A stretch of DNA of 64,000 bases from Psammoneis japonica (lineage: Eukaryota): contig QPGO01000049.1 of assembly GCA_008632985.1 (NCBI GenBank), forward strand, positions 1 to 64,000. The letters are read 5' to 3'. The notes beneath the pieces are model-generated. The model searched no databases, had not been told where the DNA came from, and saw nothing but the letters and a program-made list of their open reading frames with translations. Every line of letters begins with the position of its first letter. The first letter of the stretch is position 1. This document shows, one piece after another, positions 10,138-64,000 of this stretch. The translations under genes were made by a program, and so were the position numbers.

Positions 10138-10981
10138 TGTCCTCAAATTCTTTCTACAACTACCAACTGCGGTCAGAGGTTTGCTCAATTTATCAAGAAA
10201 TCAAGTAAGTCGTCGCTGAATGAGACAAAGAACAATCGCATCAGCAGTCTTTTTATGGTGTCAGCATGGGATGCGGGATTCTCATTCGCGTCAACCACAA
10301 AATGGTGTTCGCATGATTAAATTCAGTGACACGATGCTTCTCATCGCATGGTAAACGGTGCCGTCATTTCCGAATTGGCCAACGCGGTTGCAACGTATCC
10401 AACAGAAACCCTTCAAGAGCCCACCGCCGTTGACCTGGACTTGTCCTCTGCTTCTCCTGAAATCTCATGAGCTGGAGAACCACGCTTTCATGTGCTGTGA
10501 AAAGCATCATGAATCATTCACGGTTGTGTTTCACTTGGATTCATGCATCCTCATTGTGCAACAGGCGAGTGTGGATACATGGCAGTCGTAACTGTAATGA
10601 CAATGCTTCATTCACACGCACAATACAACGATGAACGAACGCGATGAGCGATGACAGAGCTTGCACGCGGGCCACGCGAAGCACCACGCACGGCTCCGAA
10701 ACTAAACGGCATGCAGCATGCATGCACACTCTCCATCGTGAGTCCATGCGTCGACCGTACCGCGCGCGCTTCGCACACTCCCGGGGGTCTATGCGAGACG
10801 CAAGATTCTGCTCTCACCACAAAAGAAATTCTGCTCTCACCACAACGTAGAAACGTACCGAGCTCCTTCGTAGAATAAAAGCATTCTTTGCCGAAACGGA
10901 ATCTCGATCGACCTCTCCGATGCCGAGACGTGCGCATGAAACACACTCGAGGTCTCTTGTCGACCATGGCAAGCAAACGCC

Positions 10982-11674
10982 ATGCACAACCGTGTCCATG
11001 CACGGGGATCAAATGCCGAAACTCCATGTGACACTGTCGAGTGTGACGATGTAGATGGTCCCACGAGGGATGAAACACTCGACGAGCTGAGGGAACCGAG
11101 TTGTGGCACGGCGGCGGAGAAGAAGAAGGTCGTCGAGATCTTCATCACAAACAAGGCGGAAGTTGAGAACAGGATTGGCATGGAGAACACCCACGACATT
11201 GAAGCGTTCAGGAAATGCACTCCTTCTACCATTGCTGCACTAAATGAGACTGGTTTTGGAGCGGCACCCACGGCAACGGCATTGCCAGATTTGAGTGATG
11301 CACTTGATCGTGTGCAGAAGCAAGGAGAACTGCAGGGCGCCACTCGTGCCGGGCAGGCGGACCTGATCACGAAGGCTGTCAGCCAGGTGAGGGACACTGT
11401 GTTGTCAGCAAGAAATGCAGCTCATCACACTGCTTTGCATCAAGATCAGGCTGTGGTCATGCCCCTGACGGCCGAAGAGCGCGACAGGAAGTTTCTTGTC
11501 GGCGGACACCTGCCGGACGACCAAGCGCACCGTCAATGCATTCGATGTGGACATTTTTCTGTGGATGAGCCAAACAAAAATCAAAACATTGCACAGAGGA
11601 ACAAGAACAAGCTTGATGAATGGCAAGCTTCTGTCCAGGAGTTTGAAAATTGCAAGAGGAATGGCGCACCATGA
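10982..11674 (+). pseudogene. Degraded ORF inside the TIR element with a CxxCxH motif; function unknown
   Basis: 230-aa ORF with natural charged composition and QCIRCGH motif. It contains no Tyr, consistent with TpA erasure. Confidence 0.45.
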
Positions 11675-11899
11675 GGGACGGCATTTGCACTGTGCCATTG
11701 TGTGTGGATCTTCATTGGGATGGATTCCATGGAAAAAAAACAGATGCTCTAGAATCAACAATGCTGCTGTGTGGTCCGATTGTGTTGGTGCTGGAGCATT
11801 GTCGAATCTAGAGCAGTGTTGAACAATGAACCTAGAGCAGTGTCCAATCCAGAGTTGCGCTGAACAAAGATCCTAGAATGGCATCTAATCCAGAGCAGT

Positions 11900-12175
11900 T
11901 GACAGGATTTGAACAGGACCCAGGTGCGCGTGAAATGTCGCGCGCTGTTCAGTTTACCGTGCACAGTTTTGTGTGCTTTAGTTCTGCGTGTTCGTGCACG
12001 ATGTAGTTTGCTTTCGAGCCACAAGGCTCACAAGAATGACAACAGCAGCCCGATTGTGCCGACTTGCACGTCTTTCGGCTCCTGTGACGGTCTCTGAGCG
12101 GAGACTCATCTGCTGTTTAGACAGCAGCAAGGAGTTGTTGTTTGAATTCTTGCCATTTGCCTTCAATTTCTGTCA
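11900..12175 (+). repeat. 5' LTR
   Basis: Direct repeat of 18725-19000; TG...CA termini. Confidence 0.95.
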
Positions 12176-13110
12176 GATTGACAGTCTTGCTCATTGTCAA
12201 CCCATTGAGCAACCGCCATCGTCGTCGTTGATTTGCCGATGATGCCATTTCAATTCTGCGTGGACCTCCGCATGCATCCTGCACACATCGGCAAGTCCAC
12301 GCGCGTCCAACACCAGGCATCGGCAGGAATTTAACGTCACCGTCAAGTCTCCTCACCGCTGGATGTCTGGATTGATTGTGCTGCCTTTGATTGCTGAAGA
12401 CATGCATCAACGGTCACATCCAAGTCTGTCCTTGATCCTCATCCCTTGACACACCCATTCGTCGGTTAACGGTCAAGAACCCCACACATTCAAGGATCTT
12501 CGTCGCTGAAGACAGATGTGTGTGCATGTCTTCACGGCCAAGAACTTGTGCCCACTCTTCGGACTGCGTTTTTGCCACCACTCTACAAGCACGCCGAGTC
12601 CATTGCACCTGATCTACCCTGGACTGCTGGTGCTCCACAGTTCTGCTGGGTCCATGAGGACGACTGTGAGAGCAAGCAGCCGTGATTGCAGCCTGCGTTG
12701 GGGCGAGGGTGTTTTCCCGCGTTTGTTCGTTCGTCCACAGCGCCTGACGCCTGCGTCAACTGGCCAGCCTGATCGGGAAATCCAACCGATGTAAAATGAG
12801 AACGGTTCGGGGGTCTTGTCCACCTCCAGTCAGCTTGCCTGCAGGGGTTTGCAACCCGCCACTCCGCTCGCAAGCAACCCAAAGCGCCGCTGGCTGCGGG
12901 TTTGGACGTGCCGGCACAACTCTACGGACCGGACAGGAAGTTTAGCACTTGACAACGAACGGGATGGCACAGCCCGGCGACTTCTGATTTTAAGGTAGTT
13001 CAAGATTTCAAGTCAAGTCCATTTCAAGTCAAGTCTGTTCTCACCCAAGTTTCAAGTCTACCTTCGCTTCCCAACAAGAATTGCTTGTCCTGACACCACC
13101 TTTGTCTACC

Positions 13111-16100
13111 ATGGTTCTCACTCGTCAGCAACAAACTGATGGTTTTGAGCACATTGTTGGAACCGTGCTTGCCCAAGGTGCTGGGAGCCCTCTTCGTTTG
13201 GCTTTGATCCAAGATGGCACGGACTCGCATCAAGAACTGTTCACGTTCATGCCGTCCCAAATCGACTCGCTTGAGTGCGACGACGGCACTAATGTGATCC
13301 CTTTGCCCCGCGGTTATAAGAACATGTTAGCAGCTCTAATTAGTCTGTACATTGTCAAAGCACACGAAGGTCTTGACGTTGCCAATGACTCCTCGTTGTT
13401 CACGCATGACGAGTTCCTTGCCTGCCACCTCAGCCCCGACTGCATGTCTTCTGTGTCCGTCGGCAGCTCACCCCTCGCACCTCCGCATGTCACCAACCCG
13501 ACCAAGGCACGCGACCCGGCACGAGACTTCAAGCGAGGCATCAAGCGTGACCCCACCGCTTTCACGGCTCTCAAATCCGACAAGCAGTGGCACACTTGGC
13601 ACACCTCACTTGTGGCACAAGCCTGTGCCCAAGACGTCGAGTGCATTCTAGACTCGTCGTACAAACCGACCAGCACCGAAGACAAACTGCTCTTCGCTGA
13701 ACAGCAAAAGCACATGTTCGCCGTCTTCGAACGCATCCTTCTCACCGACAAGGGCAAGGCTCTCATTTGCGAAAATGTGGGGTCTTCTGATGCCCAGACC
13801 GTCTGCCGCGCCTTGTCTGAGCATGCGCTCGCCTCCACCCGTGCATCTGTCAAGTCCTCCACCTTGCTCACGCACCTCACCACCGCACGTCTTGGTGATG
13901 GTGCTTAGAAAGGTCCGACCCACGGGTTCATCCTTCATTGGCAAGATCAGTTGCGCAAGTGCGAGGCACTCATCCCGGCCAGTGACCACTTCTCTGAAGG
14001 ACAGAGGCATGTCATGCTCGAGAATGCCACACACCCTGTCAAGGAACTCCATGCTGTCAAGAACCAAGCTGATCAGCATCGTGCACAGAGTGGCAAGAGC
14101 CTCACATGCGATCAATGCTGTGGCTTGCTCCTCTCCACGGCGGCTCAATGCGACAGTGCATTTCAACCCAAGACGACGCCTCGAGCTCCCCGACGTGCCA
14201 CACACACACACGACGTCTGCTCCGAGGAACCATCCGACGATGTGTTCTGCGACATTGACAGTGACATTGACGTCCTTCAGGCCAATGCTGCCTGCACCCG
14301 TGGTCCCAGCCTCGCCGGTGACCAATGGAAACGTCTCCCTCCCGACCACCAACGGATTTGGGATTCGCTGCCCCATTCCTCCAAGGTGATCATCCTTGAG
14401 CATTCTCGTCTGCCTCCCCGCAACCCGCGAGGCAGCAACTGCCATGAGTCCGTTACGGCCAACCTTCACGACCAACACCTTGGGAGTGACGGTGATGTCA
14501 ACTTGTCCAACACGACTCCTGCTCACTCTGGTGACCCCGCTCCAAATGTGGACGCCAATTCGGATGATCCCATCCTGGCGCACCTCACCAAGCGCAAGCC
14601 ACTGCCACCCGGTGATCTGCAATGTCTGTTGTCTCCTAACCAAGCCCCCAACGCCAGTCGACCGGGGCCATCCGCCGCTCCCTCTACCCCGCCAGCTCCT
14701 GCCGATGACACAGAACTCAACGGCCGCACTTGCCGCCGTGTCAATGACCACAATGTCATTTGCTCTGCCTCTGCTCATCGCTCCACACGCACCGGTGCTC
14801 CAGTTGATCGTGGGGCCAACGGCGGCATTGCTGGCGACGACATTCGCATCATTGCACGCACCTCTTGCCAAGTCGACGTTCAGGGCATTGACGACCATCA
14901 GTTGGTGGACATCCCCATTGTCACCGCTGGTGCCGTCATTGAGACCCAGCATGGTCCCGTCATCGCCATCCTCCATCAGCACGCATGCACGGGCAAGGGC
15001 AAGACCATTCATTCCTGCGGCCAGCTCGAATGGCACAAACAGGATGTCAACGATCGCTCTGTCAAGGTGCCCAACGGCTTGCAATGCATTGCCACTCCTG
15101 ATGGCCATGTCATCCCCATTGACATCAAGGGCGGCCTGCCTTGTGTTGCCATGCGACCTCACACTGACGCCGAATGGGACACCCTGCCAGATGTCATCCT
15201 CACCGGTGATGACACATGGGATCCTTCCATCCTAGATCACTCTGTCACTGACGACGACCAGTGGCACGACGCGATCTCTGACCCACAGGACGATCCCACT
15301 GCCAACCTGTTCGACGAATGCGGCAACCACCGTCATCGTGTCGTTGTCAATGAGACCATCATGTCCGCTTCCTTGTCTGCCGATCATGCGTCCGCCCTCG
15401 ATGATCACCTCATTCCGAACAACGACGTGTTCTACGAGTGTCATCTACACGCGATTGACCCCAAGGACGATGACGTTCCGCCCCCGGAGCGCACTCTGCA
15501 GCCCAAGGACCCCCCCTTCGAGTCTCTTCGGCCTTGCTTTGGCTTCCTGCCTGCCGACACGGTCCGTCGCACTTTTGACTGCACCACGCAGTGCGCCCGC
15601 ATGCCCGCCGGTGCACACCTTGGGAAGGCCTGCAAATCACCCAACCCCGCCCTTAATGTGCACCGCCGCAACGAGCCTGTCGCCACTGACACCGTTCATG
15701 CCGACACCCCGGCCGTCGACTCTGGTTGCACCAGCGCCCAACTGTTTGTTGGCACCGAGTCTACCGTCACTGATGTCTGCGGCACCAAGACGGACAAAGA
15801 GTTTGTCAACACACTTGAGGATCAGATCCGTGAGCGTGGTGCCCCATCCAAACTCATTGGCGACCGTGCTCAAGTTGAGATCAGCAACAAGGTGCTCGGG
15901 ATCCTACGAGCCCTCTTCATCTCCAGCTGGCAAAGTGAGCCTCACCAGCAACACCAAAACTTTGCCAAGCATCGATGCCAGACCGTGAAGCGCATGGCGA
16001 ACACTGTCATGGATCATTTCGGTTCGCCTGCCCACACATGGCTGCTGGCGCTCATGTGCGTGTGCTTCATGCTCAACCACACAGCGTCCCCACGTCTCCA

Positions 16101-18777
16101 CTGGCGCACGCCCCTCGAGACTCTCACTGGCTCCACTCCGGACATCAGCCCATTGCTTCGCTTTCACTGGTGGGAACCCATGTGCTTCCACTTCGATGAC
16201 TCCGATTGGCCACCCGAATCCCGTGAGTTGCGTGGACGCTTTGTTGGCATTGCTGAGCACGTCGGCCACCAGATGGCCTTCAAGATTCTCTCTGACGAGA
16301 CTCAGAAGATCCTCTGCCGGTCCAACGTATGATCCGCCACCACCGATCCTGCCATTCGAAACCTGCGTCTTGATCCCACTGATGGGGAGCCACCTGAACC
16401 CATCATCAAATCTCGCCATGACGACAACCCCATCAACTCTCCTGATGGGGAGATCAGGACACCCAAGATGCCAGTTTTTGATCCGCAAGACATCATCGGA
16501 CGCACCTTCCTCATGCAGCCACAAGAGGACGGACAACGCCACAGAGCTCGCATCGTCAAGGCCATCGAAGACCACGAATGGAAAGTGAACGGCAATCCCG
16601 AGCTCACTGGGTTCGTCTGCTCTGTCAACAACGACGAATGCGAGGAAGTCCTTGCCCACAACGACATCATGAATCACATTGAGCAAGAAGACGAAGACAC
16701 TGCTGTTTGGAAATTTCGACGCATCGTGTCACACGAAGGACCTCTGAAGCCTCATGACCCAACCTGGAAAGGCTCAAGCTACAACATCATGCTTGAATGG
16801 GAAAGTGGGGAGATCACGTCCGAGCCTCTTGCCATCATCGCCAAGGACAACCCCGTCACCTGCGCCATCCATGCACGAGAGAACGGACTTCTCGACACTG
16901 ATGGCTGGAAGCGGTTCCGCACCATCGCGAGGCGCCAAAGAAGCTGTTTCGCATGGCCAACCAAGCCAAGCTTCGCTCTTCCGCACTGCACCTCGCTGCA
17001 AGTGTGGGTGCGAAGTTCCCCGGAACTGCAAACACGCCATGTCACTAGACGAACGCAACGGCAACCGCAAATGGGGAGACGCAACTAATCTCGAGATGGA
17101 CCAACTCGAGGAATACGAAGTCTTCCATGACTGCGGGCCCTTCGAGTCTTCCACTCCTCCTGCGGGACACAAGAAGATCCGAGTGCACCCAGTGCACGAC
17201 GTGAAACACGACGGTCGCCACAAGGCACGACTCGCAGCCGATGGGCACCTCACGGACGTGCCCGTCAACAGTGTCCACTCCAGAGCAGTCTCCCTCCGTG
17301 GCCTTCGGCTGATGATTTTCCTGGCCGAACTCAACGAGTTGGAGACATGGGCCACCGACATTGGCAATGCCTGCCTTGAAGCCACCACCAAGGAGAAGCT
17401 CTACATTGTAGCCGGACCCGAATTTGGCAAACTCGAAGGACACATCCTTGTCATCCACAAGGCCCTGCATGGACTGCGCAGCTCCGGTCTCCGCTGGCAC
17501 GAGCGCTTCGCCGACTGCCTGCGAGCTGAAGGCTTCTTCCCCTGCCGCGCCGAACCCGACATTTGGATGCGCAGGAACGGCGACCACTGTGAATGCATTG
17601 CCGTTTATGTGGATGACCTCGCCATTGCTCTGAAGGACCCTCAATCTTTCGTCGACACTCTCACGGAAAAGCACAAGTTCAAGCTCAAGGGTGCGGGACC
17701 CATTGAGTTCCATCTGGGTTGCGACTTTTCCCGGGATCCCGACAGCACCTTGTGCCTGTCTCCACGCAAGTGCATCGAGCGCATGGTCGACAGCTGCACC
17801 CGACTGTTTGGGGAGAAACCCACCACCAATGCCCTGTCACCTCTGGAGAAGGGTGACCACCCCGAACTGGACACTTCCGAACTGCTGGACCCGATGGCAT
17901 TCACAAGTTCCAGTCTCTTGTTGGTTCACTCCAATGGGCAGTGTCCCTTGGTCGAATTGACATTGCCACGGCCGTCATGTCACTCTCTAGCTTCCGAGCT
18001 GCACCCCGTCAAGGCCACTTGGATCGTGCCAAACGCGTCTGTGGGTGCCTCTCCAAGATGCGACACGGCGCTCTCCGCGTTCGCACGGAAGAGCCCGACC
18101 ACTCGGATCTCCCTGCTCCGGCCTGTGAATGGATGCATTCCGTGTACGGCGAAGCAGAAGAGATGATCCCGAAGGATGCTCCACCGCCCCTTGGCAAGTT
18201 CGTCACTGCCGCCCACTACGTCCATGCAAACTTGCACCATTGCATGCTCACCGGACGCTCTGTCATGGGAATGCTCCACTTCCTCAACAAATTCCCGGCT
18301 GGTTGGTTCTCTAAGAAGCAAGCCACCATAGAGACTGTGACCTGCGGGTCTGAATTTGTTGCCGCAAGGACTTGTGTCGAGCAGATCATCGACCTGCGCA
18401 TCACCCTGCGCCACCTTGGCGTCCCGATCCGTGGTGTCAGTTGCATGTTCGGTGACAACAAGTCGGTTGTAGACAGTGCCACCATCCCGCACTCCAAGTT
18501 ACACAAGCGACACACCGCACTGTCGTTCCACCTTGTGCGTGAGGCAATTGCCTCTGGTTGCCTTGAGTTCCACTTCATCGAAGGCTCCCGCAACCCTGCT
18601 GACATTCTCAGCAAGCATTGGGGTCACTCCCAAATCTGGGACCTTCTCCGACCCCTCATGTTCTGGAACTTCATTCCATCCGAAGTCGAATCTGTTTCTG
18701 TGGCTCCTCAAGCAAACTGGGGAGTGACAGGATTTGAACAGGATTCAGGTGCGCGCGAAATGTCGCGCGCTGTTTAG
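13111..18777 (+). pseudogene. gag-pol polyprotein pseudogene (gag, aspartic protease, integrase, reverse transcriptase, RNase H)
   Basis: RDFKRGIKRD (gag), VDRGANGG (protease), VATDT...DRAQVE...SEP (integrase), KARLAADG, ATDIGNA, YVDD (RT), FGDNKSVV and NPADILSKHW (RNase H). Stops at ~13906 and ~16330; frameshifts at ~16940 and ~17890. Confidence 0.92.
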
Positions 18778-19000
18778 TTTGCCGTGCACAGTTTTGTGTG
18801 CTTTAGTTCCGCGCGTTCGCGCGCAATGCAGTTTGCTTTCGAGCCACAAGGCTCACAAGAATGATGACAGCAGCCCGATTGTGCCGACTTGCACGTCTTT
18901 CGGCTCCTGTGACGGTCTCTGAGCGGAGACTCATCTGCTGTTTAGACAGCAGCAAGGAGTCATTGTTTGAATTCTTGCCATTTGCCTTCAATTTCTGTCA
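18725..19000 (+). repeat. 3' LTR
   Basis: Direct repeat of 11900-12175, followed by TSD GCAGT. Confidence 0.95.
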
Positions 19001-20300
19001 GCAGTGTTGAACAAACAACCTGGAGCAATGCCGGTGTGGAATCTAGAGTGGCGTCAAACAAAGAAACTAAAGCACTGAGTGGCATGGAATCATCCAATCT
19101 AAAACCAGTTGCAAGTGAGTCACTCCCTCCGAGTCACTCAGTTTTCGACGAGGCGCGACAGATGGTTTCTAATGCAGTGCGGTTGACAGCATTCGACAGA
19201 CAGCATTCGACATGACAGTGCAGACAGCATTCGATGAAATGCGACAGCTGGTGCCCGACATGAAGCTGCAGATGGCATCAGATGCAGTGCTGTGGCTGGC
19301 ATCCAACACGATGCTGTGGACGGCATCCGACGGGATGCACAGCATCCGACGCGACACTGCATTCGACGCGACACGCTAGATGGCATTTGATTTGCTTCTT
19401 CTTCCATGCTCGGAATCTTTGAAGCAATGGTGAGGCATGTCTTGGACAGATCTACTCGAGGAACTGGAGGAACTGTTGTCTTCAGGTGGCAGTTCCTTCC
19501 TGTTGCCCTGTTTCTCGGAGCGCTCTGCTCTTGCTTTCTTCACGTCGACATCATTGTCCTCTGACAATGCTGCTGCAGCTGATGGTGTTCGCTTTCGACA
19601 CGGTCGCTCACTCATGGCAAATGTGTCCTCTGACCAAGCTGTTCAAAGCAACAACAAAAACAAAAAGCACCATCAGTTCCAAGCACGACCACAACAACGA
19701 AAGCAGTGTCGCAAAAACGCCTTTTTGACACGATGACAACACTCCCCATGACAATGCAACAATCTCAGGCGCTCTTCTCAATGCAATGAACAAACAATCT
19801 GAGCCATGAAAGACAACAGATGAAGCCGCATCTGCAAAGTGTAAACGATGCGGCCAACGGCATGGGATCAAAAACCACAACGCAGCGTTCAGGCGCTCTT
19901 CTCAATGCAAAGTGCAACAAAAAATGAACCTTTGCGACCTCGTCGAGAGGCGTTTGCACAAAAACCTTGATGGTGAGATTCCATTTCGGTAAAGAATGCA
20001 CTTTTTCTACGAAGGAGCTCGGTGCGTTTCTACGTTGTGGTGAGAGCAGAATTTCTTTTGTGGTGAGAGCAGAATCTTGCATGAGAGACCTTCGGGTGCG
20101 TGCGAGCGCGCGCGCGAAGAACGGTCGACGCATAGACTCCTCACGATGGAGAGTGGAAACGGCAGAGCCGCAACGACGCGACGCGCGACGCTCCGAAACC
20201 ACCGCCCAAATAAAAAATCAGAATCACACACCACACTCTACACTCTCTCTCCTTGCTACTCGACAAGTGACTGAACAGGCAGCACAGGCTTCGTGCATAC

Positions 20301-21242
20301 ATGAACAGGGTGCTCTCTTTTGCTCGCACGGCCTTTGTTGCAACTAGCGCTGCTGCTTTCTCACCGTCGACGTTGGCCAAGAATCATCACCAGCAAGCTT
20401 CTTTCGGTCACTGCGGCATGACATCGACAGAGGCGGCTGAAACCAACTGCGGCGTCACCTACCCCGAGCTTTGTGTCTTTGATCTTGATGCTTGTCTGTG
20501 GGACCAAGAGATGTATGAAATGACAGCCATGCCAAGTGACAAAGTCGTGGGGGACCTCAACGGTCGTGGTGAAGGTGTAAGTTGAGAAAAGGGCGAACTG
20601 CTCGTGCGTCAATCACAGCACTCTTACCGCACTTTTTGTGTCAATGCTTTAGGTAATTGGCGTCATGAGTGGACGAAACCAGATTTCATTGCACAAGGGA
20701 TCATTGATTGCGCTTCAAGAGCATGCAGACGGAAAATACCCAGGGATGAAGATTGCGCTTGCCAGCAGGTGTGTGTGTTGATACTTCGTGATGAACGACG
20801 CTGCCTTTCTCTATTTTCGCCTTGTTGTACTCACACCTTGTCGTTCGTTTGCATCCACAGTGCTGACACTCCATACGCTGAAAAAGTTGGACGAGCTACT
20901 CTCAAAATATTGGAAGTTGTGCCAGGCATGACAATTTGGGATTTGCTCATGCGTGATTGGGATGGTGTCGATGTGAATCAGATTGGAAGACAACCACCAC
21001 TGTCCTCTAATAAGGCAAGGAGTCACTTTCCCGAATTAAAAAAGGCAACAGGGATCCGATACGATCGCATGTTATTCTTTGATGATTGCAATTGGGGCGA
21101 TCACTGTGGAATGGTGGCTGCGGCTTGCAAGGAAAAGGATACCGCCAAAGGACCCGCAACCGTACGAACTCCTTATGGCCTCGGAGAAAAGGAGTGGCGA
21201 AAAGGCATTGAGGTCTACAGAGACCATGCCAAGAACCTTTGA
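20301..21242 (+). CDS. Magnesium-dependent phosphatase 1-like HAD phosphatase, plastid-targeted; exons 20301-20576, 20653-20768, 20861-21242
   Basis: VFDLDACLW (HAD motif I), ASS|ADTP across intron 2, MLFFDD, and AAAFSP targeting motif. GT-AG introns restore the frame. Confidence 0.85.
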
Positions 21243-21362
21243 TAGTGAGCTTTGAATATCACTAATACGCTCGCTTATCGTATAGGAAGCGTTTGGTGGC
21301 TCCCATAATCTTGCGCGACTGCTTGGCACTATTAAAAAATGACAATTCACTACATTATCATT

Positions 21363-22690
21363 CTAAGACACTTGTCCATCTGCCATTCCATTGAGAGCCT
21401 TGACTGGTCCTGCACCAGTCATGGCTGTAGCATCCTTCCAGGCCACAGTACCTTCGGCGTTTGTCTTCAAATCGGGAGCCAGTTTTTCAAAAATCTTCTT
21501 CTTGGCAACCTTATTCTCTGCTTCAGGGTCACCCTTGTAAGGATCAAACGTGACGCGCTCCCCGATCTTTGCTCCCTCTGGGGGGACCACAAATTCGACC
21601 GCCGTGTGATCTGCATTGGAGGCGCACATGACCATTCCGTGACTGGGAAATCCAACCAAGTTGCGAGCCTTGAGATTGCACAGGACAAGCACCGTCCTAC
21701 CATCCAGATCTGCTTCCTTATAAAAGGGTCTCAATCCAGAAGCAATCTGTCGGGGCTTGTCTTCTCCAACGTCCACTTCTTCACAGAAGAGCTTTTCGGC
21801 GTCAGGATGGTGCCACACTTTGAGAATCTTGCCTACACGAATATCTAGAGCAGAAATATCGAGTTCCTTGGCTGCCGCTGGAGGTGGCTGAGGCTGTTTA
21901 TTCTTCTTCTTGGCAGCCTTTTTCGCCTTCTTGTCGGCAGCGGCCTTTTTCTGCTCCTCCGACACGTCTCCACCGCCACCGCCAGACTGTTGCTGCTGTT
22001 CCTTTGGCTTGCTACCGTCATCACCCTTTGGTACTGCAGAAGAAGCAGGTGGGGGCATATTCTCCTCTGTACCAGAGCAAAACACCGGTACTGACGCAGG
22101 AGTCGGTTCTACTGGCAAGTCAGGAATCGCGATACTCTTCCCCTCCGCCATATCAACAAGCGTGGCATGGCACTGCTCCAACCACCGGCGAACGTGAATA
22201 TGATGCTTCTCCAACTGAACCAACGAGGGATTCTCGAGTAGAGCTAGTGTCAAATCAAATCCGCCAATGTAGGATTAGCGCTGGGTACCAAAAAGGCTCG
22301 AGTCGTGAGGTACTTGTTGAGTTGATTTAGCAAGTCCGACTCGGCAGCGGGTCCTCCCTCGTTTTCGAAGCGACACTCATCCAGCTGCTCACTCCCGCCA
22401 AGGCCAAAGCCGAAGATGGCGAAGAGCTGACGTATGGCCTCCCAATAAGTAGTAAGGAGCAGAATCAAGGGCATTGTGTAGTACCATGCCACAAAGCGCC
22501 CTAAGAATCGCATTCCGTTGAGTCAAGACTGTGTGCGAAATGAGTGCAAGCGAAAGGGAGGCTTTCTTTTTCTTGACTACTTTGAGCTGAAGAGGAGAAG
22601 CTAGCGATGCTACCAAGTTCACCAACAATCCTTCGACGCTTGATTCACCGTAAGAGTGGCCAGCGCAGCCGACGAAGTCACCTTTGCCAT
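21363..22690 (-). CDS. tRNA-binding OB-fold protein (Arc1p/AIMP1/EMAP-II-like) with GST-C-like N-terminus; 5' part broken by apparent single-base indels
   Basis: LDIRVGKI...HPDAEKLFCEEVDVGE...RQIASGL...LCNLK...SHGMV motifs. Upstream fragments in different frames (LNKYLTTRAFLV...PTLAD) are GST-C-like. Confidence 0.8.
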
Positions 22691-50860: not shown

Positions 50861-51104
50861 CTTCCCAAATCAAGAGTGCAAAGGCACTGCAATTGAGCCA
50901 ACCCACTCAAGAACTGCAGGCTGAGTGCATTTAGGGTGCATGTGGTGCAGGCAGCAACTCAAACCAATGTGCATTGATGGTGATGATGATGATCTGGCTT
51001 GGCATTGGCAAACATTCGCTGGGACATGGGGACACCACCACATGCTCCATTTGAGTTTCTCAAGTGGCATTGGCCTGTGCATCATGTGCCATCCACCCGG
51101 CACC

Positions 51105-52174: not shown

Positions 52175-52208
<34 letters not shown>

Positions 52209-52383
52209 CACACATCCAGCCAGGACAACAAAGTGGATTGTGACAGGGGTGTGCCATTGTTGTTGTTGGATGTCAGATTGGAGGATGAGTTGTGCAGCAT
52301 CCAGCAGGAAAAAAGGACAGGTGCAGCAGAGACAGAGCAAAGCAAAGACAGAGAGCTGACAAAACGAAACAAAAGGAAACAAA
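51105..52383. repeat. Direct duplication of ~570-600 bp (51105-51670 and 51779-52383)
   Basis: Both copies start ctgcaagcctgttgctccaattggagacaccaagac and end gagctgacaaaa.gaaacaaaaggaaacaaa. Confidence 0.9.
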
Positions 52384-54299
52384 AAGATCTGTGGACACAA
52401 TCAGCATGCATGTGAAAACATTTCAGTTGTTGACAAGTTGCGCTCTGGTTGAGCATGGCAACATGTTGCAGATGGAGGACATTGGCACTCCAGTGGGAAA
52501 TGTCATCCAAAGCCACAGAAATGGGTGTCAAGCTTTGATGACGAACTTTGAGTCAAGGGCTGAACTCATCATTGACAAAAGACACCTCGTCATCATTGTC
52601 ATCCAGGAGGTCCTGCATGAATCGTCATCCAGATCCTGCATGAGTTGCCCAGGGGGTGGGGGGAATTCAGCACTGGGATGGCCAGAGAATGATTGCAAGA
52701 TTGCCAGCAGGATTGCTGTTCCCCACCGTTTGTTCTTTTGGCAGGCATGAGGGATCCTTGTTTGAAATTTGCACGGTGGGTTAAAAACAAAATCTCAATC
52801 AGGGAAAAACAGAGGGTTGGACAATGGACCAACCGCTCTTTTTCTGACCATTCATGAGCAGATCAATCCATGTTGAAGAGGCAAACTGTTCTTTCTGTTT
52901 TGGCTTGAGACATCTGCACATTGAGTCACAAAACCTTGAGTGGACCATCAGCAAATTCTTCATTTTTGCTGGCTGAGCTTCTTGCAAGTCCTTGAAAATG
53001 CACAGGGCATCTGCTTTTCCACCAGCTCACAACATCAGGCTTTTTTTCTGACTGCAGGCCTTCTCCACAACAGTGTCCTTGAAGGCACCTGACCCTTTCT
53101 TCAGCAGGTTCTTTGCTGCATCACTGGAGAGAACTTTGGCTTTGGCATTGATGGCCTGTGGAAGCTTGTTTGCAATGGCCACAAACTTCTTTGGTTTTGA
53201 GCTTTGAGAAAAGACCAATTTGTGCCAGCAGTGGCAATTGCCTCTTTCAGACAAAACATGAGGGGGGAAAGAGTCTCCACTGTGGACGCACTGATGCTCT
53301 GAGTTTGTGCAACAAAGCCAGCTTTGGCAGTGAAGCTGCTCTTCTGCAGAAACATTGAGCAGCTGCAGAGAGGCTTTTAGACCTGACAAACTGGCATGTG
53401 CAATGCACCAGCACTCGAGGATGTTGAAGGCCTCCACCACTTTCTGGTGCCAAACAATGAACCAACAAATGGCCTTCTCCTTTTTTCCAACTTTCAGATG
53501 CAAACACAATTTTGCATCCCAGAGATTGACCCATGACATCATTTCCAGCTTGCCCAGGGCACATTCTTCAGACATCGAAGAGCACACCCAGCCATGTTTT
53601 TTGCAGGGAGCATGACACAATTTTGCAGAAAAGTGCACTCAGAAATGTGCGCTCATGACAGGTGGCACATCATGAAAAAACTTTCACGCCACAGTCTGGC
53701 AGCATGATGCCCCACCTGCAGCTGGAGCATGCCCCCCCCCCCCCCCCCAAAATTGCATGGAGCCAGAAGAAGCAGCTTGCACAGCTTTTGCAGCCAGAGA
53801 TGTCAAAAAGATTTTGGTCAGCTGCTTCAGCCAGGCATCATTTGATGGCTGACCAAAGCCAATTTTTAACAAGTGCCAGCAAGTGCCATCATTTCAGCAT
53901 TGCTGCCCATCAGAGCGTGCATTGCAGTGATCCAGACCACCTTTCTCACAGCAATTTTTTATTCCATCACAGTGCAAAATTCCATTGTTTCAAACCTTGA
54001 CAGTTGTGCAGCTGGCAATGACATGTCAACTGTGACAGATGAACATTTTTGTGCCACCATGGGATTGGACCCCCCCCTCCCTGTGAGGAAAACATGTTTC
54101 ACCATGAAACAGGGACACATTTTCCCTGTGAGAGTGCCCACCCTCTGTCATCACAAAACCTGCAAATTAAAATCATTTGCATTGTGCTGTGAACATTCCA
54201 CTTTGTTGTTTGCATTTAAACCAAAAATGACGCTGATGAAGCCAACACCCCAGAGTTTGCAGCAGCAGTTGCAGCTCACTTTCTTGAAGTGCCACTGTT

Positions 54300-54700
54300 G
54301 GCAGCCACCTTGTTCATTGCCAAAAAAGTGCAAAGTGTGTTGTGAGAGCACAATGTGGATGAACTGACACTGCCAACAGGAACGGCAACATGGACTTGCC
54401 GGTGGATCCGGTGCCCCTGATTCTGGAGCAGGCGAGTTTGCACCAGGAGCTGCTGTTCCATCATTTGAAGTGCCGTTGCTCCACTCCACCTCATTCATTG
54501 CCAAAAAGAGCAAAACACATTGTGAGAGCATGACACAGACAAGCCAACATGGCCCATGGGGGAATGGCAACATGGACTTGCCAGTGGTGCATCCGACACC
54601 ACTGATTCTGGAGCAGGCAAGTTTGCAGCAGAAGTGCTGTTGCTCCTCTGATCCACCTCATTCATTGCCAAAAAGCACAGAGCACATTGTGAGAGCATGT
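54300..54700. repeat. Tandem repeat of ~170-180-bp units (about 3 copies)
   Basis: ttcattgccaaaaa...ttgtgagagca recurs near 54313, 54494 and 54661. Confidence 0.8.
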
Positions 54701-54889
54701 TTCAGATGAACCAATGTGGGCCACAACACACACTCACCGGTGTGTTGGTGTGTCTGGCACCACTGATTCTGGACCAACGTTGATGCCGGTGTGTGGTGCA
54801 AGATGTCAAGCACCCAGCTCCACCCCTGCAACTCAAAGAAAACATAGAAAGAAAGCATGTGAGCAAGCAAAAAACATCTTGAGTGCCAC

Positions 54890-55420
54890 AGAATGCACTC
54901 ACTGGAACAGCCATGGGAACAAGCACCTCCCACATGTGTGCCACACTGCAGCGGGTGCTGCACAAAGGACAAAGTCATGCGGCAATGACCAAGTTCGCCC
55001 TGCACCTCCTGTGCTGCGGACGGTTCATCAATGACATGTGCAGAGCATGGACCAGAAACAGCGGACAGACTTGGGAAGCCTTTAAAAATGAGCTTGACAA
55101 CTCAAGCAACCTCCAATGGGTTGCCTCCCAACTCTCTGCCTCTGCAGTCTTTCTGGATCTGGATGTGGAAATTGGAGAAGACAGGTGCAATGTAAGTGAA
55201 CACATCAAAACCCAATGAAGCTCTTTTTGTGCATGCCTTTTTTGAAGAGTGTCATGCATGGCAAAAAACTTTTCATGTGTGTGATCCTGAGAGCTGCAGG
55301 AACAAGCACCATCTGCAGTCTTTCTGGATCTGGATGTGGAAATTGGAGAAGATGGGTGTGTTGCCAGTGAACACATCAAAAACCAATGAACCTCTTTTTG
55401 CACATGTGCCTTGTTTGAAG
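54890..55420 (+). pseudogene. Penelope-like retroelement reverse transcriptase fragment with a duplicated 3' part
   Basis: GTAMGT...MCATL, LLCCGRFINDM (cf. YxRYIDD), VFLDLDVEI (twice) and KPMNLFLH, in the expected order and spacing. Confidence 0.75.
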
Positions 55421-57348
55421 AGTGTCATTTGTGGCAACTTGTGATGATTCTGGGTGCAAAGCTCTGACATGTGCGATCACACCAACACTGCAGAAAAGCA
55501 AGTTTGTGATGTGCATGCACACAACAACATGCCAGCAGCTCAGCATTTTGGATGTGGCAGATTCGTGACAGCACACTCATGATCACAAGTCTCAAGCTGC
55601 GCCCGAATCAAAACCCATCTTGACCAACCAGAAGGACAGTGGGTCTCACCATGCATTGAGCCACTGGCATTGGCCAATGGGGCAAAGAGTCTTTCACCAC
55701 CATGGCCGGTTGTCGATTTGCAGATTTGTGACCACACGCACGATCCACGTGAGTCACAACTGCAGATGCTCTCATTTTTCACATTTTGGGGAGAGAGTGC
55801 ACTGTTGTGAAGTGTGCAGAAAATTGTGCATGCAAAAAACACACTGAAAATGCCGCAGACCAATGGGCTGTGCAAATCTGGGAAACATGAAGAAAAATGA
55901 AGGTGGGTCACGTGCGTGCGTGAAGCACTGCATGTGCCAGTGCAGTGGACTGCACACGTGCAAAGACACACGCACGTGAGTGAGGAGGACAAAGTTACAA
56001 CCAAGTTCAAATTGACTGCAATCAAAAGAAAACCAGGTTGTGCACTGTGAAAAATGGATTTCGACCCCAGTTGAGTTGAACATTGCATGCATTTGATTGA
56101 AGCTTGTGCAAGAAAAGTTGATGAGACATCAGATGAAATGCACAAAACAGCTGCATTTTGTTGAGCACTTTTGCTGGCATTTTTAAATTCTGCTTCTTGT
56201 TGACAATTTTGAAGATGCACATTAAAAAATTTACAAGGAAAGTGGAGACCACTGTGTTGCGGCCTCTGATGTCCCTGCACCCAACAACAAGTCAACAACA
56301 CATCTTTCAAAATGACAAAGACCAAACACAACAAAGTCTCAGCCTGTGGCAAGAGCAACACATGGGCTCATGCCATGTTGCTCACCTCTGTTGTGGAGAC
56401 GTGGTCACTTGAAAGAAAAAATCCACAAACAGGGGTGGGTTTGTGTGTGCCCCACCACACAAAAATGCTGTGCAGATTTGTGCCGAACAAACCTGCGCAC
56501 AACTCCAGTGCACCACCACGCACCGGCAGTGGACATTGACATGCAGCTGTTTTCCTGTGGGACCATGTGTCATTGCACCAGCAGCCCACTCGAACACCTC
56601 CCAGTTGGGAGTGCCATGCCACTCGAACCTCGAACCTCGAAGCTTGTCCAAAGAACCGGCAGCCAGTCGACACTCGTGAAAAACTTTTTTTATGTCCGAG
56701 AAAGAGTTCGTCAGGACCACCCCCCAACGATGCGACTGGTAGAAAATCTAAGTACTTCTAAGCTGCACAGAAACCCGCAGATAGATGGCCGGCTCGGCTT
56801 CTGTGCAAATTCGAGCTCGTAAAAAATAAGCAGGGTTATCATACGGTATCATCACACAGTGTAGATAAATACCGGTACTACCATATACGCACGCACCTTG
56901 CCAATAAGTAAATAACGGCGATTAAGTACTCGTACAATTGCACTCTCGCAATTAACATAAGCCTACCTCCCCGCCCCACGGGAAACAGTTAGGGCCCTTA
57001 AATGATGAAACATGGTTCGCGTCGATCGATTTATTTCAAAGCTTGTCGCACGAGGACATTATCGTGAAGATTACATATGGCTTTCCAAATGGATTGCGAA
57101 AATGTCTAATTTAGGGCGTCACTCGTTGAAACAGAATAATCAGAAGCTATCACGTTGCGTTCTCTTAGTGTCATTTCACGCTAATCGCTTCTTATGCGTT
57201 TTCAAATAATGTAGTAACAAAGCAGCAGCCTTAAACATTTTTCGGCGAAAGAAAAAAAATATCAGTTCGATGCATTTCCTTCGTGTCTCATTTCTCTGCA
57301 CTCCAAAACTGTCGCAAAATTTGCTCGAAAGGAGTTCAAGCGTTCAAG

Positions 57349-60221: not shown

Positions 60222-61669
60222 TTTGTGTTGAGTATGAGATGATGTATACATCTTGGGGTGCCACAAAGAGCATGTTAGAGAACCGTATCAGATGTGCCAT
60301 GTCGTTATGAGAAAGAGGGTACCCAAGATTTGCAGTTTTTAGTTTATTTGTATTCCAATTATTAGCATTATTTGTTAATGATCCAAGCCCACCAACAGCC
60401 TTGCCTACTCCATATCCCACCGAGACACCGACGAGCGTCCAACAAGAGAGCCAACAAATGCGCCACCCAAAATCCCAAAACCAAATCCGACAGCGGTAAA
60501 AGAGAGCCCCGACGAGAGCTCCCCCGCGATATTCAAAATCACCTACAGCGCTACCTCCTTATCCCATCCAGACCCAACAAAGCCGTCAACCTTGATGCCT
60601 AAAACAAACATGCCAACCTCAACTCCACCTCTCTTCCAAAATCGCCTAGAACGACAGATTCGACACCAGCGTCAAAGAATTCGGTAACCATCATTCCCAG
60701 GTAGGGCAAATTTTGAATTGGGTCGCTGCAGCATTTGATACAGTACAGTGGGATACGAAGCTTGGCAATGAAAAGCCATCTTGATATCTGAGTATATGAA
60801 AGTAACATATTCCGTGTCGGCCCAAAGAAACTGTATCCATCGTTTTGTGATTTTGGGTGTTCTGGCATTGAGCGGTTGCTGTATTACGACGTACAATGCT
60901 TCCCGGTTGGCTCACACAAACTATGGTGATACACAGTCCCAAGTCTAATGCCAACTAGCGAGGACAACGCCGCAATGCACTGTCGGTTCCCCGTCGGAAA
61001 CTCCGAGTCGTTACCCTCTGTCATAACAATCCTTAGTGTTTTCCTCCCTAGTTGTGGCGGTCCACAAGTCAGAGCCTTCTGTAGCAAACTCTGAAGTCAC
61101 CCTAACCAAAATCATGACTGATCCATTTGATTTTTGGAACTTCTACCTTAGAAGAGTCGCCACCACTACTGCTGCTATACCGCCAGTTGATGCACCCACA
61201 GCAACACACCCGCAATCCCACCAATGATCAAACTGCAACAACAAGAATAGCACAGCACACGTTGGCAACGGCGCTTTCTCCAATGTTCAAATCTCGGTCT
61301 CGGCACATTGTACAGTCAGACATGCTCTTTCTTTTTATTCTTCTTGCGCGCGCAATTTCGGGTGTTGAGCAAGAGGAATCGATTGTCAAAGAAGCATAAT
61401 GTCTTCCTGATGACGGGCCACGAATTCTTCCATTATCGGGCTGCTCAAAGCCGTGCTTCCACAAAAGCAAGGTTCTGTATAATCATCACGAGGCGTTGTG
61501 TCACCGGATCTGAATGAAACAGTCTCAAGCTCGGACGTGGCGTGGCAGTGGTGGCATTTTGATGCTACCCCGCGGCACCTCTCCTTCTTTATTGACGGGG
61601 CAAACGCTCCAGCCATCACAATGCCTCTGGAGTGCTCGGCACCGTAAGATGTTGACCGTCGTAAGGGGA

Positions 61670-64000
61670 TTTGTCCGCTGCAATGTTGAATGTGGAGGGG
61701 CATGGTGAGATGTGATTTTTTTTTTTGGTTGTTGGTCGGTTGTGAATTCAAAACGCCGCGCGGTTGGCTGTTGCGCGGCCCAGACGAGCAGAGGACAGAC
61801 AAATGATGCATGACTGATGTGTGTGTGTGATCGATTCATTCATGTTGTGGAGGACAACATGGCGCAGTTTGAGACACCAGATGATCCATCCACGCATTGT
61901 TTTCTTGGCAGTCAGCTCATGAGATGATTGCAACCAAAGTCCTCATGCAATGACCACCCATTGCAAAAATCCCACCTCATGTCCCAGCCTGGCTGCTGTT
62001 TCAAACAGCAGGAGCACGTTGGAAATCCAGCACCACCTCGGTCAGGCAGCACAAGGAACTCCAAGAGATTGTCGGAGCTCAAGAACACAGATGATGTGCA
62101 ACACCTGCACATGCCAGCATCAAAGAGAAGTGGCTTAACAAACATGGTGCATCACTCCTGCTCTGGGCACTCTGCTTTTTTCACATTCTTTGCTTCAAAT
62201 TTTGGCCATTCAACCACCGGACTTGAGCAAATCTCTGCAGGTGGAGATTTGCTTGCTTGTGCTGCAAATGCAAAAAACAAAATGTTCTCAGACATGGACA
62301 ACAAAAAATTTGCACAATTTTGTTTTGGAGTGCACATTTGCCGAAAGCTCTGAGGGGCCATTCTTGCAATTTAGAAAGTTCAGCATCGACTTTTAACACC
62401 AGGTCTTTTGCACATTTCATCTGTCAATGGAGAGGAGCTAAATCTCAACCTTCAACAATGAAATTTATGATGAGTTGCTGTCACAACAGAGAACTGAGTG
62501 CCACACCCTTGGAGCAAACTTGCAACGAGCAAATGCGTGTGGCACATTTTGTGCAGATTGTGCATGATGTGACATTTTTACACTGCGCACATTGTGCTCA
62601 CATGCAAATGCATGACACACCACAATTCCTTGAGCCCTGTGGTGGTTGAAGGGTTAAAACATGTGTGTGGTTGAGAAAATGCAGGAAGCAAAACAGAGTG
62701 CTCCTTTCCCCTCTGTGTCAAAAATCTTCTCTGCTCAGCAGTGCACAAGTGGGCACAGAAAGAGAAGACCAAAAAGCAACCATGGGCATCCAAAGAAAAC
62801 ACAGAGGGTGACATGCCAGGAGCTTCAAACTTCAAACACAGGCAGGAGGAGTGGCCAGACAATAAAAAGAGTTGAGCTCCCAGTTGTGTGCATGCAGTGC
62901 AGAAGCAGCGCTGGTCTCCAAGCAGATTTTGATCAAAGCAGCACATGTGTCATGAAGTGCAAACCCAACTGCACAATGACTTTCATGCACACACAGGCAA
63001 AAAGCAGTGACAGAAAAAAATTGCTGAATTGCAAAGCAACAAATTGCCAAGAAAGAGACACTCCAGTTGTGAGAGCACAGCATTGACTTGGCAATCAGGG
63101 GCAAAACACAGGAGACAGCAATGTTGCCAGCTCCAAACAACAATCATCGTGTGTTTTGTGCCAAACATCAGAGGCAACATCAGCTGCTGCTGGCTCTCTG
63201 TGGTCAGTTGACTTGGGGGGTGCCAAGGTGAGCACAAACAAAGAAGCTGTGGTCATTGTGACAGCTTTCACAGGAAGCAGCAGGGTCGACATCTTGGAGC
63301 TCACAAAAAATCCACACATGGTTGGGCTCCAGGTTGTCAATCTTTGACAATCAGCACCATGCTCAAGGACCCACTTTTTTTTTGTCCTTTGCAACACGCA
63401 CACACCCCTGCATTTTTTTTGAGTCAAGGAAGTTGACGTCTTTGGCCTGTTTGCTGCCAGAGGATTCTTGCCACAGGCTTCAGTGCACCTCACATGGGAG
63501 TTTGTGTGAGATCTTGCATGGCACCACCCATCTTCCTGTGAAGGCACAGATCTCTCTCACTTCCTTTTTTTTGCAAAGCTGCCAACCTTGCGCAAAGCTG
63601 CGGGAGCGCCCCCTCCGGCATTGATTTGATGTTGCGCCACCCCAAATTGACAAAAACAAGAAATCACGTTGAAGCCATCTGTTGCTTTGAAGTCAGCACT
63701 TGCCTGTGTGAGCACTTTTGTTGCAAAGAGCAACCACCACCTTTGCTGTGTGCTGGTGTGTTCTCTCTTGCTTGCTGAAACAAAGAAAAAAACATTCTTT
63801 GTTGATGGCAAAGACTGGTGCAATGGGTTTTTGCAAGTTTGAGAGATCATCTCAGGGGATGATGAGAGAATTTGGAAGTTGTTGGCATTGCTGGTGAGCT
63901 GAAAAAGGGCAAGGATGGAAGAAAGAATTGCGCCATCGATGCGGTGCTGCTGCTGTGTGCACACAAGAAGTTGCCATGAGCACCAAGGTCAGCTGCTCAC
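61670..64000. mobile_element. Start of a third old decayed transposon block; runs off the window end
   Basis: TA/CG depletion resumes, and 62210-62660 is a direct homologue of 38090-38570. Confidence 0.7.

Follow-up and report, generated by a model that had tools for sequence, protein, structure and literature searches.

Very probable TpA-specific hypermutation of silent repeats, superimposed on CpG decay, in a contig of Psammoneis japonica

We analysed the first 64,000 nucleotides of contig QPGO01000049.1 of Psammoneis japonica (referred to as the window throughout), in which the dinucleotide TpA (TA) is nearly absent from long blocks of repeat DNA that lie beside genes of ordinary composition. 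The depletion very probably reflects a hypermutation of silent repeats that takes place after insertion, at the level of DNA and only at TpA (A:T to G:C), together with decay of CpG (CG). The change itself runs from TA to TG or CA and took place after insertion, on resident DNA. Five independent lines agree on its direction and timing: tyrosine codons, the long terminal repeats (LTRs) of a Copia retrotransposon, paralogous segments, a young compared with an old Copia copy, and the majority state of the Copia family in public reads. With moderate confidence, we also consider the process to be a dedicated enzymatic one, guided by chromatin and of the kind described in Bigelowiella natans, in which adenine deamination would be the leading chemistry.

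The cores of three depleted blocks (24001-38150, 41151-54400 and 61901-63600; 29,100 bp in total) contain 92 TA, compared to 2027±30 in 200 mononucleotide shuffles, which served as the null for the dinucleotide counts (minimum shuffle, 1947). The observed/expected ratio (O/E) of TA is thus 0.04-0.07. CG is also scarce (174 against 1619±29 in the shuffles; O/E 0.09-0.16), and TG and CA are present at ∼1.85 times the expected level (O/E 1.79-1.92 and 1.82-1.86, respectively). An earlier note on this DNA had counted by hand about 30 TA in 24181-32160 and had described an excess of TG and CA. The exact count is 29, where base composition predicts 564, and the excess is as described. Its statement that the interleaved host DNA is ordinary in TA was also borne out, as five control stretches outside the blocks, which we used as the baseline and in two of which genes were confirmed here, have TA O/E values of 0.39-0.66 (0.59 when pooled). 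The strong CpG loss in three blocks had not been flagged and is an addition to that note.

In a scan by 1-kb bins, TA O/E was 0.00-0.12 over ∼23-38, 41-56 and 62-64 kb, 0.04-0.23 over 11-20 kb, and 0.3-0.9 in most of the bins outside the depleted stretches. At 100-bp resolution, the first, second and last of the three blocks span ∼22.9-39.2, 40.5-56.65 and 61.7-64 kb. Their borders are sharp within 100-200 bp; between 56.6 and 56.8 kb, for example, the count rises from 0-1 to 5-12 TA in each 100 bp. The blocks and the segment that separates the first two are as follows.

22900..39200, no strand assigned: depleted block 1; TA almost absent, CG almost absent from ∼24.0 kb, TG/CA ∼1.8-fold
39200..40450, no strand assigned: unaffected island of 1.25 kb between blocks 1 and 2; TA and CG normal
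40500..56650, no strand assigned: depleted block 2; TA O/E 0.04, CG O/E 0.09
61700..64000, no strand assigned: depleted block 3, which extends beyond the end of the window

The borders of the island are sharp to ∼100 bp, and it may represent either a recent insertion or an expressed unit that is protected; it gave no match to Pfam, tRNA or Rfam.

CpG is as depleted as TpA in three of the four blocks, while the fourth, which consists of the Copia element and an inverted-repeat element around it, is normal in CG. As CpG is depleted as strongly as TpA in the three doubly depleted blocks, about half of the TG/CA excess there stems from CpG decay. At the borders, the TA-poor domains reach past the CG-poor domains. 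Diatom transposable elements (TEs) are CG-methylated via DNMT5a, as reported in PMC9998398, and CpG decay is therefore expected. Methylation-driven decay accounts for the CG half of the change in these three blocks; it cannot remove TpA.

The mass balance gave the share of TpA. Relative to the control stretches, the blocks have a deficit of 1094 TA and 1361 CG (2456 together) and a surplus of 2383 TG and CA. For Copia, the baseline was a set of 80 related environmental loci (the best 80 of 510 metagenome relatives), against which the deficits are 174 TA and 6 CG and the surplus of TG and CA is 198. CpG decay alone is too small for this surplus, and hence the missing TA became TG or CA. These 80 loci have a median TA O/E of 0.72 (minimum 0.31) and a median GC content of 0.48 (maximum 0.53), compared to 0.15 and 0.568 in the Copia of the window, which fits a change from A:T to G:C. 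In the older blocks, TpA loss and CpG decay cancel in GC, the content of which is 0.47 there and 0.47-0.50 in the control stretches. The young Copia has lost ∼80% of its TA and almost no CG, whereas both losses are seen in the older blocks.

The Copia element and the repeat that encloses it (the inverted-repeat element, 10727-20155, which contains the whole of Copia) are arranged as follows.

10727..11899, no strand assigned: left arm of the inverted-repeat-bounded repeat; TA O/E 0.17-0.2, CG ∼0.8
11900..12176, plus strand: Copia 5′ LTR, 277 bp, with TG...CA ends, 94.6% identical to the 3′ LTR
12177..18724, plus strand: Copia interior; TA O/E 0.15, CG 0.86, GC 0.568; hypermutated at TpA only
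18725..19001, plus strand: Copia 3′ LTR, with TG...CA ends
19002..20155, no strand assigned: right arm of the same bounding repeat; low in TA, with normal CpG

The terminal inverted repeat is 179 bp long (10727-10905 against 20155-19975, 86.5%, an inverted match). An RVT_2 domain is found in Copia at ∼17159-17746 (E = 3.9e-23), and similarity to Copia polyproteins covers 15694-18750.

Tyrosine codons are TAY (Y, pyrimidine), so a TA-free sequence cannot encode Tyr. We scored the Tyr columns of the Copia polyprotein twice. Against the consensus of 28 polyproteins (28 columns), the window copy has Tyr at 6, Cys at 11, His at 8, Phe at 2 and Trp at 1. Cys or His thus occupies 19/28 columns, compared to 69/2136 consensus Tyr columns in the 80 environmental loci, which come from a scan biased against mutated copies (Tyr is part of one of the two patterns searched for). 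Against 120 homologues (21 columns), the copy has Tyr at 3, Cys at 8, His at 4 and other residues at 6, these last mostly in the poorly aligned ends, and Tyr to Cys and Tyr to His are among the most frequent substitutions in this table. Cys and His are exactly the products predicted from TAY to TGY and TAY to CAY, respectively.

An LTR pair is identical at integration. The two LTRs of this Copia now differ at 15 positions, all of them transitions, 13 of which are at CpG- or TpA-type sites. By column, the differences fall at 6 of 42 CpG and at 3 of 10 TpA (TA in one LTR, TG or CA in the other); four more lie in two sites with TG in one LTR and CA in the other, and only 2 in the other 221 columns. 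As the LTRs were identical at integration and now differ at TpA and CpG, the change was post-insertional and in resident DNA. Per site, the rate of change at TpA in the LTRs equals or exceeds that at methylated CpG and is far above that of all else.

The LTRs also bear on a route through RNA, in which double-stranded TE transcripts undergo ADAR-like A-to-I editing and reverse transcription then carries the change into DNA. The Discussion of the Bigelowiella preprint (bioRxiv 10.64898/2026.01.13.699255) notes the preference of ADARs for a 5′ U, and the best-resolved case here is a retrotransposon. The differences between the LTRs at TpA sites contradict this route. Moreover, both strands are affected about equally, the non-coding repeats, a tandem array and the inverted-repeat element are hit too, and AA is intact although ADAR tolerates a 5′ A. 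Editing at the RNA level is, therefore, very improbable.

Post-insertional change in DNA makes a further prediction for paralogous segments. Copies that resolve an ancestral CG or TA independently would often have TG in one and CA in the other at the same dinucleotide. Two inverted paralogue pairs were compared.

36212..37693 (plus strand) and 46770..48245 (minus strand): inverted paralogue pair, 1.45 kb at 75% identity
26906..27485 (plus strand) and 52831-53409 (minus strand): inverted paralogue pair, 0.58 kb at 71% identity

The 1.45-kb pair has 59 CA/TG double transitions compared to 2-6 in each other class, and no CG/TA pair; the 0.58-kb pair has 24 compared to 1-4. Block 2 has two further sets of repeats, a local duplication (51105-51671 / 51779-52383) with 6 CA/TG double transitions against 0, and a 189-bp tandem array (49540-50740) whose mixed columns include 11 CA/TG against 1-6 per other class. 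The excess of TG versus CA between paralogues is 10-30-fold. In the 1.45-kb pair it would imply ∼118 such ancestral sites among 1435 dinucleotides, which equals a normal content of CG plus TA.

Comparison within the Copia family gave the same direction. Block 1 contains the 3′ fragment of an older Copia, together with the remnant of an LTR, at ∼23240-23944 (minus strand). At the steps where the two copies differ and this old remnant has TG or CA, the young Copia has CG at 16 places and TA at 4, and the reverse was found at 0. For comparison with the family majority in public reads, we used the 40 listed variant places of 1675, which are the best-supported subset and not a sample. Among these, the family majority is TA and the window copy TG or CA at 4 places (reverse 0), the majority is CG and the window copy TG or CA at 13 (reverse 4), and there are four CA↔TG doubles (8 places). 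The consensus copies are thus not themselves TA-free, a point on which the earlier note had made its proposal depend. Its central claim, that A is changed to G at TpA on both strands of repeated or silent DNA, agrees with the Tyr to Cys/His replacements, the LTRs, the young and old copies and the read majority.

These results also bear on intrinsic composition, namely that the elements were free of TA (and CG) when active or came from such a donor. Part of the depletion of Copia may predate its insertion, as the LTRs have lost ∼30-50% of their TA since insertion while the interior is depleted by ∼80% when measured against related elements, and to that extent not all of the loss would be post-insertional. 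However, conserved Tyr positions, which a TA-free sequence could not have encoded, read Cys or His in this copy; the read majority of the family has TA at the 4 listed places; the paralogue TG-versus-CA excess requires CG or TA ancestors; and no related locus among the 80 has a TA O/E below the minimum given above. Intrinsic composition is already contradicted for Copia and the paralogous segments, and overall we regard it as extremely unlikely.

The change is confined to one dinucleotide. AA/TT is not depleted (O/E 1.05-1.68 in the depleted 1-kb bins), nor is AT (O/E 0.73-0.87 in the blocks compared to 0.80-1.04 in the control stretches). This argues against two of the candidates named previously for this DNA. 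Pol eta-type WA to WG mutation (W, A or T) would also deplete AA, and is disfavoured. Deamination of methylated adenine is unlikely. Known eukaryotic (AMT1-type) N6-methyladenine is symmetric at ApT and lies in active genes rather than in TEs, with no depletion of ApT, according to PMC12695648; as a source of adenine loss, an ApT-directed mark has the wrong target and the wrong type of chromatin, and AT is not depleted here. General GC-biased conversion is likewise disfavoured by the intact AA/TT and AT.

Both strands are affected about equally. TG and CA are similar in the blocks, and the numbers of Tyr to Cys and Tyr to His in the 21 columns (8 versus 4) do not differ significantly (p = 0.39). 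The base that follows the target A has a strong effect. Among the 92 surviving TA, TTAA accounts for 28 and CTAA/TTAG for 26, while GTAC, ATAC and ATAG account for 0. We fitted a Poisson model with two half-sites per TA, where the loss rate is set by the base 3′ of the target A, and obtained rates of 0.22 for A, 1.19 for G, 2.49 for C and 2.32 for T (likelihood ratio of 143.6 against a uniform rate, 3 df, p = 6e-31). The flank rule is thus TAY > TAG > TAA: TA before a pyrimidine is lost first and TTAA survives longest. The surviving TA could be new mutations; at equilibrium, their contexts would still mirror the loss rates. TAT is again the most depleted in Copia and both arms of the inverted-repeat element, where the numbers are small.

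The same rule reads equally well as RTA > CTA > TTA (R, purine) if thymine is the target, and sequence cannot separate A to G from T to C on the opposite strand. In this alternative, a heterochromatin mark on the T of TpA (5-hydroxymethyluracil, 5hmU, or a further modified base, made by a TET/JBP-type dioxygenase) would mispair with G or be mis-repaired, giving T to C, that is, TA to CA, or TA to TG from the other strand. Dinoflagellate 5hmU prefers TpA and TpC steps. In dinoflagellates, which belong to the SAR (stramenopile, alveolate and rhizarian) clade, 5hmU made by a TET/JBP homologue is enriched in TEs and aids their silencing, as PMC11572971 describes. Nothing in this analysis points to such a modification or enzyme in diatoms. 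5hmU pairs well with A, and we know of no high T-to-C rate arising from it. The authors of the Bigelowiella study favour adenine deamination, though as a proposal (bioRxiv 10.64898/2026.01.13.699255). We consider a thymine target, the main chemical rival, distinctly unlikely.

The blocks were also assessed in public reads. Three public runs, all from one sample and one study, contain the stretch, and they were compared with 10001-30000. One of them (X3) has 0.16 million letters and another (X2) is RNA-like, so the blocks were assessed from the remaining run, X1; gaps in X2 cover over the repeats were given no weight. The library type of X1 is not on record; that it consists of accurate short reads is our inference from its depth and its exact matches. 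X1 contigs with a word depth of ∼60-76 match 23791-26691, 26677-27369 and 29177-29701 with 0 differences, and one over 27343-29206 has 4 differences. Together, the exact matches cover 4.1 kb of block 1, and another 1.9 kb agrees apart from 4 differences. Such exact and deep 31-mer contigs suggest that the reads are accurate. Other Copia copies in X1 have TA where the window copy has TG or CA, and TA is therefore callable in the Copia family.

A sequencing or polishing artefact, in which modified bases of heterochromatin are miscalled and the real DNA has TA and CG, has to be weighed against these data, as modification-dependent A to G and C to T miscalls do occur in nanopore-only assemblies. 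The reproduction of block 1 by the X1 contigs, the TA calls in other Copia copies of the same run, and the TG and CA states that are fixed and differ between paralogues all argue against it. If a stable modification of the inosine type were present, the reads would disagree between TG and CA at each site, unlike the clean contigs observed. However, X1 shares its sample with the other two runs, may be the assembly's own data and is no independent strain, which weighs on the other side. A sequencing artefact is unlikely on these observations, and we give the miscalling of modified bases very little credence; the check made here on the basecalling artefact that the earlier note had raised came out against it, with the platform and independence of X1 unconfirmed.

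The depth of X1 also gave copy numbers. Over 12000-19300, the summed word depth of Copia is 60,000-130,000 compared to ∼60 for a single copy. The Copia family is thus very abundant, its matching words corresponding to something like a thousand copies, and its differences from the window copy in X1 comprise 1290 transition and 383 transversion places. Summed read depth over the left arm (10727..11899) is ∼1200-4100 against the same single-copy level. In block 1, the depth is 2-4.5 times the single-copy level over 25.3-30 kb and ∼72 over 24.0-25.3 kb, which is now single-copy. The affected DNA therefore includes high-copy (Copia), low-copy (2-4.5 times) and now single-copy stretches. If the term RIP-like of the earlier note is taken to mean triggering by duplication, it has to be weighed against this part of block 1 and against the Bigelowiella precedent, where the target region is single-copy.

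Two observations were made in passing from these contigs. In X1, contigs bridge 10758 and 20085 (with 4 letters between them, depth 57.6) as well as 11859 and 19007 (depth 70.6); they would represent solo-LTR forms, or else copies or an allele in which the inverted-repeat element lacks Copia. Within block 1, 24935-25161 is covered by X2 contigs that have loose ends on both sides and a joint from 24960 to 25117 at a high depth of 556; this piece may be related to a sequence that is expressed at another place.

The depletion tracks silent domains and not families, and includes the single-copy stretch at 24.0-25.3 kb, as would be the case for a passive, context-specific bias of replication or repair that is visible only in compact, untranscribed and methylated chromatin, would thereby build up in old repeats and needs no dedicated system. 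TA loss also coincides with CpG decay, which is itself passive. Such a bias has to account for the extreme ratio of rates in the LTRs and for the fact that a single dinucleotide is hit while AA, AT and TT are untouched. In addition, three metagenome Copia loci (L006, L031 and L053) have strong CpG decay (CG O/E 0.10-0.44) and a TG/CA excess and yet retain ordinary TA (O/E 0.47-0.57), so CpG decay and TA loss are separable. In Bigelowiella, the process turns on in some lines only (bioRxiv 10.64898/2026.01.13.699255). A passive origin, the main rival outside genome defence, is thus unlikely.

The earlier note knew of no named system of this kind, a statement now outdated by a preprint of 2026. 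Mettrop et al. (bioRxiv 10.64898/2026.01.13.699255) report TpA-only hypermutation in mutation-accumulation lines of Bigelowiella natans, in which 231 of 302 nuclear single-nucleotide mutations fell in integrated giant-virus and virophage regions. A→G/T→C changes numbered 230, all on TpA (210/211 in one region and 20/20 in the other). The rate was ∼6e-7 per site per generation, ∼1000-fold over background, and came in bursts in some lines. The genome has 124 clusters that are TpA-poor and CpA+TpG-rich, reverse-transcriptase and DDE domains are enriched in the TpA-depleted coding sequences, and an ADAT2-like adenine deaminase is proposed by those authors as a hypothesis. The main text of the preprint makes no mention of diatoms, flanking context, trinucleotides or CpG co-depletion. 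In our literature search, this preprint was the only directly relevant paper, and the signature was not found described in diatoms.

The features shared by Bigelowiella, as the preprint describes it, and the window are an A:T to G:C change at TpA only, on both strands of resident DNA, and its local confinement to foreign or silent DNA beside normal genes. The hosts differ, being a chlorarachniophyte (Rhizaria) in one case and a diatom-like stramenopile in the other. In Bigelowiella, the process was measured live on a single-copy giant-virus insert with 3.3% of TpA left, whereas in the window it is deduced from sequence. The targets there are viral inserts, and here they are repeats, including a young LTR retrotransposon, with near-saturation (TA O/E 0.04) in blocks of ∼2.3 to 16 kb, of which the last is truncated where the window ends. 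The window thus appears to show this kind of process again, in another and distant lineage, acting on ordinary TEs and repeats and on top of CpG decay.

Other known systems resemble the window in part. To our knowledge, targeted hypermutation as a genome defence is almost unknown beyond fungal repeat-induced point mutation (RIP) and animal APOBEC/ADAR. Like RIP, the process in the window is a transition hypermutation that ruins repeats, spares the neighbouring genes and is associated with cytosine methylation. However, RIP changes C to T mainly at CpA, makes TpA and stop codons, and lowers GC. In the window, TpA is destroyed, CpA is gained, TAA and TAG stops are removed, and GC is raised (Copia 0.568 compared to 0.48). 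The C-to-T signature that creates TpA is absent here, and we rejected fungal RIP as the identity of the process. Diatoms have DNMT4 enzymes, which may be relatives of RID (PMC9998398). APOBEC, acting on cDNA, and ADAR, acting on double-stranded RNA, are alike in being host-inflicted transition hypermutation of mobile elements, ADAR with A to G and a 5′ U. Both hit a single strand, in the course of the replication cycle, whereas in the window resident DNA is changed on both strands, and elements not seen to use reverse transcription are also affected.

From the above, we propose that two processes act on silent repeat DNA after insertion, both ending in TpG/CpA. The first is ordinary deamination of 5-methylcytosine at CpG (CG to TG or CA). 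The second, and faster, is a TpA-specific A:T to G:C transition, seen as TA to TG or, from the other strand, as TA to CA; it acts in place and on both strands, and stops within 100-200 bp of the neighbouring genes. Its specificity, direction, timing, confinement and dependence on the flanks are shown by the observations given so far. Presumably, an enzyme is at work that is directed to silenced chromatin. Most probably, adenine in the 5′-TA context would be converted to hypoxanthine by an ADAT2/TadA-like nucleic-acid deaminase, and hypoxanthine would be fixed as G at the next replication. As an outcome, elements are ruined without stop codons, through Tyr to Cys/His and other missense changes. 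ATA, TTA, CTA and GTA codons are removed, and TA-containing signals would go too.

Besides the part of the Copia loss that may predate insertion and the shared origin of the reads, several points weigh against this proposal. The acting enzyme is deduced and none is assigned from this window, and the data show past action only. In the doubly depleted blocks, a TG-versus-CA site may descend from CG or from TA, and the TA share there therefore rests on the mass balance and on Copia. The order of flank preferences differs by set (T >> C and A > G in Copia; C, T > G > A in the blocks), and these preferences are weak in an environmental Copia locus with the same signature (L056, described below). 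Strand-coordinated clusters of TG or CA, which single-strand deaminases often leave, were not found in runs tests (z of -0.2 to 1.6 in the blocks, and 2.6 towards alternation in Copia); saturation would erase them. Finally, apart from Copia, the inverted-repeat element and the paralogues within the window, the blocks appear to be devoid of any recognisable TE protein, and their status as repeats rests on paralogy and the 2-4.5-fold read depth.

On this last point, 255 stop-to-stop open reading frames (ORFs) of ≥90 aa from 10.5 kb onward were scanned against Pfam at E ≤ 0.01. The only credible matches were RVT_2, Acid_PPase and tRNA_bind; three others were below Pfam's own cut-offs. The earlier note had named LTR, Penelope-like and DNA-transposon sequences among those hit. 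The LTR class stands, as the Copia with its RVT_2 domain and LTR pair, and the inverted-repeat-bounded repeat is hit too; the Penelope-like and DNA-transposon labels could not be kept, as no Penelope-like or transposase domain was found in the 255 ORFs. A tblastn search with the 120 Copia homologues matched only 15694-18750 (plus strand), with a short opposite-strand match inside it, and 23428-23944 (minus strand). Rfam and tRNA scans found nothing.

Outside the window, one metagenome Copia locus of 2759 bp (L056) has a TA O/E of 0.31, with CG at 0.76 and TG at 1.54. At its 25 consensus Tyr columns, it reads Tyr at 12, Cys at 9 and His at 4. Its DNA is 69.5% identical to the Copia of the window, and it belongs to a different family and probably to a different organism. 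The process thus seems not to be restricted to the host of the window but to operate in one further organism or more; the scan that found the locus gives no frequency of the phenomenon.

More broadly, and tentatively, we consider it possible rather than probable that this is a chromatin-guided DNA base-editing defence in diatoms that is common to SAR algae, carried out by an adenine deaminase or a thymine modifier that reads 5′-TAY. If so, the cases would be the diatom-like stramenopile studied here, the chlorarachniophyte, and an unrelated environmental Copia locus with Tyr to Cys/His replacements. TpA would be erased faster than methylation erases CpG, leaving repeats with TG and CA only, in which no tyrosine can be encoded, and TAY > TAG > TAA would be the fingerprint of the enzyme and a criterion for its assay.

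A second lineage would mean that the process is neither peculiar to one species nor limited to viral inserts, and that it can saturate. Lineages with and without the signature could be compared in a search for the enzyme, possibly a naturally occurring editor of adenine in DNA. The window supplies testable specifics for it, namely the order of flanks, the speed relative to CpG decay and the sharp, chromatin-like borders; the second lineage and the flank rule together make this search tractable.

As TAA and TAG are nearly absent from the affected DNA, long open frames arise in several frames and on both strands. The translations of the longest ORFs of the blocks are noise-like and rich in Cys, His and Trp. 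TA-free repeats thus yield long spurious ORFs, and gene finders would over-call genes there. Within Copia, an 807-aa ORF (13909-16332, plus strand) is overlapped by a 527-aa ORF on the opposite strand, and neither has a Pfam family.

The genes outside the blocks are eukaryotic and comprise an EF1A-like GTPase, CUE-domain, PAN-domain, Acid_PPase-like and tRNA_bind-domain genes. The best database matches of the EF1A-like GTPase have ≤66% identity, and the named ones are diatoms; the host is accordingly treated as a diatom-like stramenopile whose close relatives are missing from that database. The last two genes lie between Copia and block 1.

20271..22274: spared host genes, Acid_PPase-like (plus strand) and tRNA_bind-domain (minus strand); TA O/E 0.51

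The Acid_PPase-like gene has two short GT..AG introns, and an RNA-like X2 contig over 20395-22347 skips 20577-20652 and 20766-20857. Run X2, which is listed as 'DNA?', behaves like a transcriptome.

One more TA-poor stretch, at 6501-7950, was rejected as part of the phenomenon, being acidic tandem-repeat coding sequence with no TG/CA excess. It lies in a 607-aa ORF (6104-7927, plus strand) whose 51/102-bp tandem repeats, if translated, would give an acidic protein repeat rich in Asp and Glu. TA O/E of this ORF is 0.15-0.33 and its purine skew is strong, and the depletion there is compositional.

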